Of a stretch of 64,000 nt of DNA, positions 9,828-39,877 are shown in pieces. The notes under the pieces are model-generated. The model made no database searches. It was not told where the DNA came from and saw nothing but the letters and a program-made list of their open reading frames with translations. The position numbers were made by a program, and so were the translations under genes. Source of the DNA: an uncultured bacterium (GTDB lineage: Bacteria; Patescibacteriota; JAHJAL01); assembly GCA_938004065.1 (NCBI GenBank), contig CALKWM010000020.1:1813-65812 (forward strand). Reading direction: 5' to 3'. How positions within the stretch are numbered: the first letter of the stretch is position 1; each line of letters begins with the position of its first letter.

Positions 9828-12800
9828 CTAATTATTATCTCTAGAAAATCCAAATATAGGGTTTACAGAAACTACTTTAACAGCTTGCTTCTCTTCAGGT
9901 AATATTTTCTTGATTTTTTCCAAAATACTGTCTCTTTCGGATAATTTTCCCTCGCGGATAACTTCACGAAGTTGTTTAGTTAATTTTCTAGCAATACGAC
10001 CATGAAAAACATTTCTCGTCATGAGTAGGCTTTCCAAACGCGCGCGATCAGACGCACTCCAGCCAACATTCATTGCCTCATCTAAAATTGTTTGTTGGGA
10101 AGGTGTTAATCTCTGAATATTACTATCAAAACGAGTTATTTGTGGGCCATTCTTTGATACATATTCAAGGTGTAGTTTCTTATTAAGAGTAATATTGTCT
10201 TTTTTTCTTTCTTGATCATTTGATCTTAATGTTTGCAGAGCTTCACCAGTAAGCAACACATCCAAAGCATTGGCACTTTTATTATTACGAAAAAAAGTAA
10301 ATTGTTTTTGATTGTTGGAAAATTCTGATTGAGAAAAAACAAGGACTTCCGGTGATTGCAAAATTTTCGTTTGATCCACGACACCCCACTTAAATACAGG
10401 TATTTTTTCTAAAGCATTTTGTGCTTCTGGTGTTGCTTGTTCTTTGAAATGTTTTAAATCCGCAATAAACTGATCGTCAGTAAAAACATCAGCTTCTTTT
10501 TCTAAACGCAAATATTCTGCAGTAGCAGTGTCGCTATCTGTGTCATAAATACCCTTATAATTAATTGGGTTAATTTGCTCTCCTAAAACAGATGAATCAC
10601 TTCCGATCGTTGCGTTGATCAGACTTATTTTATCTTCAAGTTTTGTTACCAAGCCAAGAAATTGATCTAACTCTTTATTTGGAACAATATTGATTACCTC
10701 AACCTCTGAATGAGGTGATCCAAGCCTATTAATACGACCGTTTCTTTGAATCATGCGAACCGGGTTCCAATGAAGATCATAATTTATAAGCAATCCACAA
10801 TCTTGTAAATTTTGTCCTTCAGCAAGAACATCAGTACTAAACAAATAAGTTAATTCCTCTTTTTCAGAAACACGTTCGCGCGCATCTTTTGCAACAGGAG
10901 CAAACCTTTCCGCTGATCGCATTGCATCTGCTTTCTCTTTACCAGATACAAATTCTGTATTTTCGGTAGTGAAAATATTTTTTTTATTATTTAATACATT
11001 TTCTTTTAAATATTTTATTGTGTCAGCAAAAAAAGAAAAAACAAGTATTTTTTTATTTGGATTTTTTTTAGCAATTTTAGTCACTTTTTCTAAAAATACT
11101 GCCAGTTTTTTATCTTTATTTTTAAACTGTTCGGTTAATTCTATTATTACGGCAAGTATTTCCTTTTCAGTAGCAATGTCTTCTTTAAGAGCTTTAATAT
11201 TGTGAGAATTTGTAGATACTTTTGTTCCAAGTTTTTTTGCTTTTTCAAGAATTTCTTCATCTGTTAAATCCAAATTTTCTCCATCCTCTGCTTCATATTC
11301 ATCTAAAATATCATCTATGTCAGAAAGATTTAGTAATAAGTTTTCTTGAAGAAAAATATCTTCGAATGTTTTTAATCTTTTTTGATATCTTTTTACTGAC
11401 GCTAGTAGTGCATATGATGATGATTCAAATCTTTTCAACCATACAATACGCAATAATCCATACATACTTAATTGTAGTCCGATTTTTTCTTTTGTTTCTT
11501 TGGTAAATTTAATATTTTTTATTTCATCAAGAGTCTTACCATAAACCTTGTGATCATACATTGATGTTCTATATGGTATAAAAGATAAAGAAAGAATATA
11601 TTGATATAAACGATAAATAATTGATTTGCCAGTGATATTCATGGTCTCTTTTTTTAATTCTTCTAATTGTCGTAATGGGTGAATTAAGATGTCAGTTGTT
11701 TCCTGAATTTTTTCAACAGGGGTTTTTTCAATTGACTCAATAACTGAATCAATTATTATACTTTGATATTCGCCGGAATTAAAAGTTTCATTGGAGACCT
11801 TGATTTTAGGAAAGAAAAACTCTTTACCATCTATTTCCAAACCATTACCGTTCAATTCTTCTTCAATACTTTGACGAGTATTTCTAATAACAAATTCACG
11901 TAAAATAGGATCAATTACTTGGCGTGCTTCTTTATAAATAGGTGTCATATCATTACCTTGCGCGCGATTTTGACTAATTTTTTTCTTTAGCTCAAATAAA
12001 GCATCGAAAAACGATCTTGATTTAATAACACCTTCAGAATTACGAACATTGACCTGTAAAAGATCTTGTTCACCACGAGTACCAAGCAAAATTTGATTTG
12101 TTAAGTCATCAATAGAATTATTTACTGGTGTTGCAGTAAGAAGTAGTGTATTGGCATCTGAATTATCAACTAACCATTCGCTTATTTGTTGAAAACGTTT
12201 ACTATTATGAGATCGCAAATTATGTGATTCATCTATAACAAATAAACTAATTGGTATATATTGGTCTTTTTTTCTTTCTTCATCTATTTGATTTTTATTT
12301 TGCATAGAAATAACCGTGATGCCTAGAATTTTCTCTCTAGCTATTTCGTTTTCCCACTGACCAACTAATGATTTTGGAGCAATCACAATTATTCTTCGTC
12401 CTATATATTGACGAATAACGCCAATTGCAGTAATTGTCTTACCTAAACCAACCGAATCTGCAAGCATTGCAACGCCGTTTTTATCTAAACGCCAAAGTAT
12501 TTGTTTGACACTTCTTTCTTGAAAATTTTGTAATTTACGTGAAGATAATGCTTCAATTTTTCGATCCTCTTTTAAAAGGTCTCCATACATATGATCAAGT
12601 GTCTTGATATACATTTCATACGGACTAAAAAGCATTTCTCCATGAATAGAAGTATCTATTAACTCTATAAACTTACCGGTCCATTCGACACAGCCCTCAT
12701 CTGTCCAAACCTCTTCAAACCAAGACAAGTGCCCATGTTCCTGATCCTTATTTTTAGGATTAAACTGGACTACGCGCTGATCGTCTTCGCCGGCATTTAA

Positions 12801-13262
12801 TTCGCGATTTGAAGTAATGCCATTTTTTGTAAAATTAGAAGAACCTATGACACCGATTGCTGTTTCGGATTCAAAATTACCAAAAATATAACATTTAGCA
12901 TGCAAAAATGCTTTTTTAAAAACTTTTACTTCAAGGATTTTATTATCAACTAATTGTTTTAACTCTTTTACTGTTGGTTTTAAATTACTGTCGATTTTTA
13001 GTTTTTGCAGATCTTCAAAAATATCTTTGTCTGGAAAATCTGGTTCAACTTCATTTAGTTGGTGTCGTGGGATTAAGGGTTCTCGACCAATAAGTAAACG
13101 AATTTTTTTATATTTTTTCAAATGAGGTAAAAGCAAAGCAGTCGCCTCAAGATCCCAATATCCAGTAGCAATAGAAATTTCATCAAAGTTAGCACTAACA
13201 GAAATTAGACTATTTAATAAATCTACTCTAGTATTGTCGATGATTTTTGGAAATTTTTTCAT
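9828..13262 (-). CDS. PLD-family nuclease fused to an SNF2/SWI2 helicase (SF2 ATPase)
   Basis: An N-terminal HKD motif is intact: [29 protein letters not shown]. Helicase motifs present are [16 protein letters not shown] (I), [10 protein letters not shown] (II) and [10 protein letters not shown] (III). The C-terminal lobe reads [35 protein letters not shown] (V-VI). Confidence 0.85.
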   Translation of the reverse strand: [1144 protein letters not shown]

Positions 13263-39600: not shown

Positions 39601-39877
39601 CAAGTATATTTTGGATATTTTCAAGAAGCTGTGCAATGGTGATGATGTTGTTCATCGAGATTTGGTGGAATTATTCAATCGGGAAACAAAGGAAGCCAAG
39701 GAGATGTACCATTATTCTCAATTACTTAAAGAATCGATTGAGCATATTATTGGAGAGAAGCAGGAAAAAGGCATGGGAGAACTTTTTGGCAGTCTGGGCA
39801 AGACTAATATCGCCAAAGACTCTTCACTGTCTTGGATTGATGATTTTGAGTTGATCTCATTTTTGATAATTAAATAA
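36620..39877 (+). CDS. SNF2/SWI2 helicase with N-terminal degenerate PLD-like domain
   Basis: Helicase motifs present are [38 protein letters not shown] and [35 protein letters not shown]. The N-terminal region aligns to the PLD domain of ORF 9828..13262, but the HKD motif reads [23 protein letters not shown], with K changed to Q and GSxN degenerate. Confidence 0.8.
   Translation: [1085 protein letters not shown]

Follow-up and report, generated by a model that had tools for sequence, protein, structure and literature searches.

Association between loss of the PLD active site and a neighbouring Type III Res in a family of SNF2 ATPases from two restriction islands of a Patescibacteriota genome

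Introduction

Which component cuts DNA when two related motor proteins sit in two different restriction loci of one genome? The question is raised by a 64,000-nucleotide (nt) stretch of DNA, here called the window, from a genome of the Patescibacteriota JAHJAL01 lineage (GCA_938004065.1, CALKWM010000020.1), which encodes one SNF2-family ATPase in each of two islands of restriction genes: P1 in island 1 and P2 in island 2 (Table 1). A preliminary description of the sequence proposed that the two are paralogs with complementary nuclease content, the N-terminal phospholipase D (PLD) domain of P1 being the cutting activity in island 1 and that of P2 having become a non-catalytic or DNA-binding module where a Type III Res endonuclease supplies cleavage. 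We determined the homology of the two proteins, their motif states, their synteny, the association of motif state with neighbouring genes and the relative evolutionary rates of their domains; from these we infer who cuts, how the proteins may dimerise, how the small DUF4391 protein of island 2 may couple physically to its partners, and the direction of evolution. The locus as a whole is best explained, and in our judgement probably, as two restriction-modification cassettes that were acquired independently, each built on a member of one PLD(HKD)-SNF2 family, with cutting done by the PLD domain of P1 in island 1 and by Res in island 2.

Restriction enzymes that join a PLD nuclease to a motor are known, SauUSI among them. 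A September 2026 preprint describes MtsD, the effector of the MANTIS system, as a dimer with a single PLD active site. Restriction requires both H122 and the Walker A motif of MtsD, and it is the methylase MtsC that confers specificity (10.64898/2026.09.23.753747). The joining of two single-HKD domains into one active site is known for Nuc, BfiI, SauUSI and MtsD (10.64898/2026.09.23.753747), and a 2026 survey found HKD-SNF2 effectors in DUF499-centred 'BREX-related' systems.

Results

P1 and P2 are homologous in their PLD and helicase domains and differ at the PLD active site

Both open reading frames (ORFs) were found where the preliminary description placed them, and the helicase motif strings that it quoted occur in P1 and P2 alike. 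BLASTP aligns the two proteins with 28% identity over residues 6-405 (E 9e-29) and 31% over residues 549-903 (E 6e-38). The N-terminal domains are indeed alignable, with 27% identity (E 5e-11) for the first 200 amino acids (aa) compared by themselves and a profile-profile match between the N-termini of the two families in hhalign (97.6% probability, E 4e-12). P2 has no Pfam PLD match; a Foldseek search of the PDB with the AlphaFold model of its residues 1-235 (predicted local distance difference test, pLDDT, 77) placed only PLD-family structures at the top, SauUSI (7clg) with E 1.7e-7 and then R.NgoAVII, Zucchini, BfiI and NucT. On the 200-aa alignment, the profile match and these structural matches, the N-terminus of P2 is homologous to that of P1; BLAST, hhalign and Foldseek all support a PLD domain there.

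The term paralogs overstates the relationship, since identity between the helicase cores is only ~29%, whereas much closer relatives of each protein occur in other phyla, and each gene lies in its own island with a recombinase gene beside it. Matches include a Patescibacteria protein at 91% identity for P1 and, for P2, a Patescibacteria protein at 84% and Clostridium proteins at ~60%. P1 and P2 are best seen as deep homologues, separately acquired members of one family rather than duplicates made in this genome.

The SNF2-rel_dom and Helicase_C domains of both proteins score above the Pfam cut-offs, with GLGKT at 272, DESH at 344, QRNGR at 839 and (T/S)ATP in P1, and the equally intact GLGKT at 274, DESH at 360, QRFGR at 815 and (T/S)ATP in P2. 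Residues 27-165 of P1 match PLDc_2 (35.1 bits, cut-off 27) and RE_NgoFVII (30.7 bits, cut-off 23.8). As reported earlier, its HKD motif is intact, and the complete HxK...GSxN signature is present in 118 of 118 members of the P1 family. From these features P1 is predicted to be the nuclease-motor effector of a two-gene system in island 1.

P2 lacks the catalytic residues: the signature His is replaced by R123, the Lys by R125, the Ser by T141 and the Asn by D143. The loss of the motif claimed in the preliminary description thus stands, but not the remnant that it identified, 'IHVQN', which is five residues off; the counterpart of HxK is S-R123-A-R125. The His of 'IHVQN' falls five residues downstream of the catalytic position and recurs in HKD-intact relatives ('HGKMYHV'). 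In the HKD-intact relative L160, 'LHGKMYHV...GSSNFT' aligns with 'SRARAIHV...GTLDFT' of P2, and 'L-H-A-K' of P1 falls on 'S-R-A-R'. A global MAFFT alignment of the full-length proteins put the 'IHV' His of P2 under the catalytic His of P1, a register that we rejected because BLAST, hhalign and within-clade alignments disagree with it.

Among the 120 closest relatives of P2, ten different residues occupy the His position (8 proteins retain His and 4 retain both His and Lys), the Asn position is always Asp or Glu, and the Lys position is K or R. None of 78 full-length genome relatives has HxK...GSxN, and all four positions vary freely. A few structural residues (F144, T145, G148 and W180) are conserved across the P1 and P2 families. 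The PLD domain of P2 probably lives on as a structural module that may serve in dimerisation or hold DNA.

The C-termini of the two proteins were also inspected. Residues ~880-1144 of P1 (9828-10620) form a family-conserved region with the invariant acidic residues D889, E895, E921, D930 and D935, for which we found neither a P2 counterpart by BLASTP nor a Pfam match. We also considered whether the last 200 aa of P2 hide a nuclease and rejected the idea: only V, F, L and G are conserved there, and no charged residue is.

Table 1. Positions of the features discussed, within the window
Feature	Island	Position	Strand	Evidence and remarks
BglII-like restriction endonuclease (REase) and methylase	1	622-2174 (REase 622-1236)		
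HD-domain protein	1	4377-5264		
Partner methylase of P1, 1095 aa	1	6537..9824	-	Pfam Eco57I, N6_Mtase, TaqI_C, faint MmeI_hel; PADLOC REase_MTase_IIG 1.7e-135
P1, PLD(HKD) domain (aa 1 to ~195) and SNF2-family ATPase, 1144 aa	1	9828..13262	-	Pfam PLDc_2, RE_NgoFVII, SNF2-rel_dom, Helicase_C
P1 catalytic signature, H121-A-K123 (12894-12902) and G140-S-S-N143 (12834-12845)	1	12834..12902	-	Direct translation
Methylase gene	1	13775-14695		
GmrSD enzyme	1	14674-16362		
Weak DpnII-like ORF	1	16365-17354		
Second methylase gene	1	17360-18610		
Tyrosine integrase gene	adjoins 1	19654-20466		At skew boundary (near 18600-20500)
Serine recombinase gene	adjoins 2	33761-35329		
P2, SNF2-family ATPase with N-terminal PLD fold lacking catalytic residues, 1085 aa	2	36620..39877	+	Pfam SNF2-rel_dom, Helicase_C
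P2 degenerate motif, R123-A-R125 (36986-36994) for HxK and G140-T-L-D143 (37037-37048) for GSxN	2	36986..37048	+	
DUF4391 protein	2	39879..40670	+	Pfam DUF4391 1.9e-36; starts 1 nt past P2 stop; overlaps mod by 11 nt
Type III Mod methylase	2	40660..42630	+	DPPY at 123; Pfam N6_N4_Mtase; PADLOC MTase_III 2.9e-199, full length
Inserted accessory gene (Schlafen AlbA_2, HATPase_c_4) between mod and res	2	42641..44323	+	Pfam
Type III Res, SF2 ATPase and C-terminal PD-(D/E)xK	2	44407..47418	+	Pfam ResIII, RE_endonuc 1.8e-39; PADLOC REase_III 1017 bits, full length

The state of the HKD signature is associated with the neighbouring genes

Relatives were collected in a genome scan, with one genome per species and the best matches to P2 kept, and in a metagenome scan seeded with the P1 family, with the best matches to P1 kept. 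We called a relative Res-linked if its neighbours were DUF4391-Mod-Res, and methylase-only if it had an Eco57I/MmeI-type methylase and no Res. The preliminary description had predicted that an intact HKD would anticorrelate with Res across the clade, and such a pattern is seen: HxK...GSxN is degenerate in 75 of 76 Res-linked relatives (intact in 1/76) and intact in 48 of 49 methylase-only relatives (degenerate in 1/49). The 75 are made up of 73 loci next to Res, Mod or DUF4391, a set in which no intact signature occurs, together with P0037 and P0401, the latter beside a DUF4391-like ORF, Mod and Res; the 48 are made up of 40 loci, four with a methylase identified by Pfam and four from context look-ups. 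The metagenome scan gave 80 further loci, nearly all intact, 40 of which adjoin an Eco57I-type methylase and none Mod or Res. Individual intact cases include P0268 and P0282 beside an Eco57I-type methylase, P0332 beside a DUF1016 gene and then such a methylase, and P0408 beside a DUF4391-Eco57I methylase fusion.

The association also holds close to P2. The helicases of seven loci (L133, L144, L148, L151, L154, L155 and L160) score ~930-1016 bits against P2, level with distant Res-linked members; each retains an intact HGK...GSSN and is paired with a large Eco57I-type methylase, Res being absent. In the helicase-core tree a single clade with 100% bootstrap unites these loci and the two Res-linked groups; identity is ~50% among the groups and 29% between them and the P1 type. 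Representatives of 50%-identity clusters in this P2 superclade number 45 intact and 64 degenerate. N-terminal identity divided by core identity gives 0.97-1.08 for four HKD-intact clades, and 0.85 and 0.52 for the two Res-linked clades, P2 belonging to the last. Relative to the helicase core, the dead PLD domain changes up to twice as quickly, which fits a constraint that is relaxed, not absent. Taken together, the association, the faster evolution of the PLD domain, the invariant Res motif and the lack of a nuclease motif in the methylase (the last two described below) support the earlier reading that the PLD domain would cut in island 1 and be non-catalytic where Res cleaves.

Several observations weigh against this reading. 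P0274 (L165) has an intact HAK...GSSN beside DUF4391-Mod-Res, in which Res keeps PD...ETK, and P0325 (L172), whose neighbour is a DUF4391-methylase fusion, is degenerate although the flanks that were read, 8 kb upstream and ~4.6 kb downstream, contain no Res. Some Res-linked members keep His and Lys, for example P0030 and P0037, of which P0037 lies in a DUF4391-Mod-Res operon. The two scans are biased samples, the genome scan toward P2 and the metagenome scan toward P1. Moreover, the transitions in question are few, so that the raw counts are not independent observations and their size overstates their statistical weight. The small-sample bootstrap leaves the branching order of the three subclades unresolved, and the wider tree, in which intact methylase-linked lineages are basal and the degenerate Res-linked clade is derived, was built by neighbour-joining without bootstrap. 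Finally, even for MtsD, the relative that has been studied, cleavage was not reconstituted in vitro (10.64898/2026.09.23.753747). Read from motifs and gene neighbourhoods, the anticorrelation is strong, though not a law. His and Lys survive here and there among Res-linked members, and P0274 is fully intact; this suggests that decay followed the gain of Res and did so more than once. DUF4391, Mod and Res co-occur, so the comparative data cannot tell which of them made the PLD domain dispensable.

The junction between the HKD-SNF2 gene and the methylase carries varied insertions, KilA-N, Fic/DOC and DUF1016/YhcG nuclease-like proteins (L144 9897-10709; L155 13249-14307; L168 3348-4484), and seems to tolerate them. 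In L166 (3350-13643) an HKD-intact SNF2 gene and a 1645-aa Eco57I-type methylase adjoin type III CRISPR Cmr/RAMP genes.

Island 2 encodes a probable four-gene derivative of Type III systems

The Type III Res endonuclease that the preliminary description assigned to island 2 is confirmed by Pfam and PADLOC. Its motif reads P938-D939 ... E957-T-K959 (nt 47218-47283), and D939, E957 and K959 are conserved in 53 of 53 related Res proteins aligned. Among the 80 genome loci, in bacteria and archaea, the order SNF2-DUF4391-Mod-(accessory)-Res recurs wherever the flank is long enough to show it; the P2 relatives at these loci are 45-69% identical to P2 and come from Bacillota, Pseudomonadota, Bacteroidota, Planctomycetota, methanogens and others. 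Judged by this gene order, island 2 would not be a two-gene mod-res system of the Type III kind, as SNF2 and DUF4391 always precede mod and co-diverge with Res. Pairwise distances correlate with r = 0.93 between SNF2 core and Res, 0.86 between SNF2 core and Mod, and 0.88 between Mod and Res, values that none of 500 permutations reached. Since SNF2 tracks Res at least as well as Mod does, the four genes are taken to be inherited as one unit. The best reading of these comparisons is that island 2 represents a widespread four-gene Type III derivative, SNF2-DUF4391-Mod-Res, with one inserted gene.

The inserted AlbA_2/HATPase_c_4 gene occupies the mod-res junction in only 5 of the 80 genome loci (L029, L031, L068, L069 and L075) and by this distribution appears not to be core to the system. 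It recurs in unrelated genomes and also beside HKD-intact methylase-linked loci (also noted: L108, L130 and L174), and is a recurrent hitch-hiker. The two small ORFs upstream (35370-36334) and a 227-aa ORF downstream (47455-48138) were rejected as components, there being no counterpart in related loci.

The operon and relatives of P2 also occur on plasmids. A complete SNF2-DUF4391-methylase-Res operon lies between insertion sequence (IS) elements on the IncFIB/IncHI1B Escherichia coli plasmid pHS30-1 (L163; NZ_CP029493.1 151905-160933), under generic product names, and P2 relatives were found on 130 plasmids, among them 20 of Listeria, 18 of Enterococcus, 15 of Bacillus and 14 of Escherichia. 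At least 8000 protein clusters (90% identity) match P2 at E <= 1e-10, a count that covers all HKD states together.

It could be argued that the SNF2-DUF4391 pair is a self-contained accessory or regulatory module, which clears proteins from DNA, counters anti-restriction or controls Mod, and that the loss of the PLD site has nothing to do with Res. This would accommodate both P0325, with its dead PLD and no Res, and P0274, with its intact HKD beside Res; and classical Type III enzymes need only Mod and Res. An optional module is harder to reconcile with the invariant gene order and orientation, with frames that abut or overlap (39877/39879 and 40660/40670), and with an SNF2 core that follows Res more tightly than Mod does. 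In addition, HKD-intact sister lineages pair the same SNF2 and DUF4391 modules with a methylase in what is apparently a complete system. We consider the accessory module unlikely, although it deserves to be kept in mind, and prefer the reading in which Res has taken over cutting from the PLD domain of P2.

The island-1 cassette pairs P1 with an MmeI-like methylase

The gene that follows P1 begins 3 nt past the P1 stop codon and encodes a large methylase. Its domain order is an N-terminal domain, an MmeI-like helical spacer, a gamma-class N6-adenine methylase (NPPY at 637) and a TaqI_C target-recognition domain, and its profile matches the spacer of MmeI (5hr4) with E 1.6e-5. The order SNF2-then-methylase is kept in the P1-type loci L081-L089, where only this two-gene cassette is found.

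The preliminary description held that island 1 has no Res or other nuclease. This is right for the two-gene cassette (6537-13262) but not for the island, which also holds BglII-like, GmrSD and weak DpnII-like enzymes; these sit in separate systems, each with its own methylase or alone. By its gene content, island 1 (622-18610) is a dense stack of putative restriction systems. A 282-aa ORF (5544-6392) was rejected as a component of the P1 cassette, since it matches none of the downstream ORFs compared.

The methylase itself is the other candidate for cutting in island 1: it might be a Type IIG/IIL enzyme of the MmeI kind with a nuclease in its N-terminal domain, the PLD-SNF2 protein then being accessory. 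The PADLOC match to REase_MTase_IIG (1.7e-135) and the MmeI-like spacer after an N-terminal domain would suit such an enzyme, and a 2023 paper mentions in passing that relatives of the Type IIG enzyme Cj0031 lie beside PLD-SNF genes (PMC9881135). However, the N-terminal 190 residues have no Pfam match and no Pfam nuclease, and no Asp, Glu or Lys is invariant in residues 1-190 across eight partner methylases aligned, so that no nuclease is seen there. The PLD signature, in contrast, is kept in all members of the P1 family and in all methylase-linked relatives but one, and restriction by MANTIS needs the PLD His (10.64898/2026.09.23.753747). A nuclease in the methylase is therefore quite improbable, and the PLD domain of P1 remains our candidate for cutting in island 1.

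DUF4391 is shared by Res-linked and methylase-linked systems

In the AlphaFold model of the DUF4391 protein (pLDDT 89) an alpha/beta domain leads into a long helical hairpin at the C-terminus; searches of the PDB with the model gave no meaningful match. Unexpectedly, DUF4391 is homologous to the N-terminus of the methylases that partner HKD-intact relatives of P2: Pfam matches DUF4391 in 7 of 7 of them, and hhalign aligns the two over 153 columns (E 3.4e-10). Precomputed Pfam records place DUF4391, Eco57I and TaqI_C in one protein, and a hidden Markov model (HMM) of the free-standing DUF4391 matches only HKD-intact P2-type methylases among all ORFs of 80 loci. DUF4391 therefore accompanies the P2-type helicase whatever the methylase, free-standing with Mod-Res and fused N-terminally to an Eco57I-type methylase. 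The homology is limited to the P2 superclade; for the N-terminus of the P1-type methylase of island 1 it was not shown, with 6% probability in hhalign and no match to the DUF4391 HMM. In the fused methylases DUF4391 occupies the position that the nuclease domain has in MmeI.

We infer that DUF4391 may couple the SNF2 motor to the methylase, which would be a first functional lead for this domain; in the open-access literature we found two papers on DUF4391, neither of them functional. That DUF4391 rather than Res made the PLD site of island 2 dispensable, for example as a cryptic nuclease, is very unlikely. HKD loss coincides exactly as often with DUF4391 as with Res, and the fold of DUF4391 has no known match, but its fusion to the methylase in HKD-intact lineages means that its presence does not predict HKD loss, and this argues against a replacement nuclease; nor did we find any resemblance to a nuclease fold or motif, whereas PD...ExK of Res is fully conserved. 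Hardly credible is a P2 domain that is still catalytic through substitute residues, for although the 120 closest relatives keep K or R at the Lys position and Asp or Glu at the Asn position, family members carry Q, R, S, N, H, D, T, G, K, P, M or L where the signature has His, the wider family shows free variation at all four positions, the domain changes at up to double the rate of the core, and PLD chemistry needs His as the nucleophile.

Discussion

Proposed mechanism and history

We propose that in island 1 the MmeI/Eco57I-like methylase, through its own target-recognition domain, would mark host DNA and select the sites, while P1 would act as the ATP-driven effector whose PLD domain cuts. 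By analogy with MtsD, SauUSI and BfiI, two copies of P1 would dimerise into one PLD active site. In island 2, Res with its invariant PD...ExK would be the nuclease, and P2 would remain an active-looking ATPase with a non-catalytic PLD scaffold. The system likely began with an HKD-SNF2 protein whose partner was a methylase fused to DUF4391; the DUF4391 part then likely became a separate gene as Mod and Res replaced the methylase, and the catalytic residues of the PLD domain likely decayed thereafter under relaxed selection, more than once.

Extending this, the SNF2(dead PLD)-DUF4391-Mod-Res operon may be a class of its own among ATP-dependent restriction systems, very widespread and equipped with two motors. 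It would derive from an HKD-SNF2 protein and a DUF4391-methylase: DUF4391 would have split off, Mod and Res would have been recruited, and cutting would then have passed from PLD to Res, with the PLD domain kept for dimerisation or DNA-holding and DUF4391 coupling the motor to whichever methylase selects the target. We offer this tentatively, as a proposal somewhat more apt to need revision than to stand as worded.

Relation to known systems

The closest parallel to island 1 is MANTIS (formerly Gao_RL; Hma; 'Type-2 BREX-related'). P1 has the architecture of MtsD, a single-HKD PLD domain followed by an SF2/SNF2-type ATPase; its H121, at a nearly equal position, may correspond to MtsD H122; and it is paired with a large N6-adenine methylase that would carry specificity (PADLOC HmaA 1e-28). 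Unlike MANTIS effectors, P1 scores far below the family cut-offs, and island 1 is a minimal two-gene cassette. No Pfam match to the DUF499/AAA+ protein MtsA or the DUF3780 protein MtsB was found among the scanned neighbours (4377-6392 and 13775-21779) or beside the P1-type loci L081-L089. By its domain content, P1 would thus belong to the known kind of PLD-motor effector, here within a minimal cassette of two genes that lacks MtsA and MtsB. The partner methylase resembles MmeI and BREX PglX in its MmeI-like helical spacer, gamma-class NPPY, C-terminal recognition domain and weak PglX matches, but its N-terminus has no conserved nuclease motif and there are no BREX partner genes.

Island 2 resembles the Type III enzymes EcoP1I and EcoP15I in its Mod with DPPY and its Res with an SF2 ATPase and C-terminal PD...ExK, both with full-length matches to REBASE-derived models. 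It differs in having SNF2 (dead PLD) and DUF4391 before mod in the same operon, co-diverging with Res, and its Res scores 367 bits where the NCBIfam cut-off for the EcoP15I type is 564. The Type IV enzyme SauUSI is the top structural match of the P2 N-terminus and has the same order of PLD domain and motor; however, it recognises modified DNA itself and has an active HKD, whereas the active site of P2 is lost and P1 appears to depend on a separate methylase for specificity. DISARM class 1 (DrmD SNF2, DrmMI methylase, DrmC PLD) brings together the same three kinds of activity, but here the PLD domain is fused rather than free-standing, and the DrmD models, whose cut-off is 610 bits, give only 141-142. 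Neither DrmA, a DUF1998-associated helicase, nor DrmB is present among the Pfam-scanned neighbours of both islands.

P2 matches the PADLOC model 'C3a139 HKD+Snf2' from end to end (E 1e-150), so the family is already catalogued as defence-associated, although the label says 'HKD' and the Res-linked majority lacks it. Annotation and defence-finding tools should not treat 'HKD+Snf2' as a nuclease in the Res-linked family. In the open-access literature we found no account of the four-gene Type III variant, of its HKD loss or of the relationship between DUF4391 and the methylases; searches on DUF4391, cd09178 and 'inactive HKD' returned no description of the four-gene system, nor any published partners or function for 'C3a139 HKD+Snf2'.

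Type III systems are the textbook two-subunit machines, and the variant described here would add a second motor and an unstudied DUF4391 partner. It spans bacteria, archaea and plasmids of E. coli, Listeria, Enterococcus and Bacillus cereus, where records say only 'helicase-related' or 'SNF2-related' protein. Its relatives offer a natural series for a nuclease swap in which the motor is kept: the intact HKD is seen first with a methylase and next with Res, and the series ends with a dead HKD beside Res. The P1 and P2 systems are also linked to the recently studied MANTIS effector.

Genomic setting of the two islands

Island 1 looks like a foreign insertion. GC skew is near zero or slightly negative at 1-18000 of the window and very strongly positive (0.15-0.47 per 2 kb) from ~20000 to the window end, independent of gene strand; the magnitude of the skew outside island 1 is itself unusual. 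An AAA_14/DUF4143 ATPase gene (20601-21779) lies just beyond the tyrosine integrase gene. Two small ORFs without a family match precede island 2 together with the serine recombinase gene; these ORFs, the serine recombinase and the AAA_14/DUF4143 ATPase are probably parts of mobile elements.

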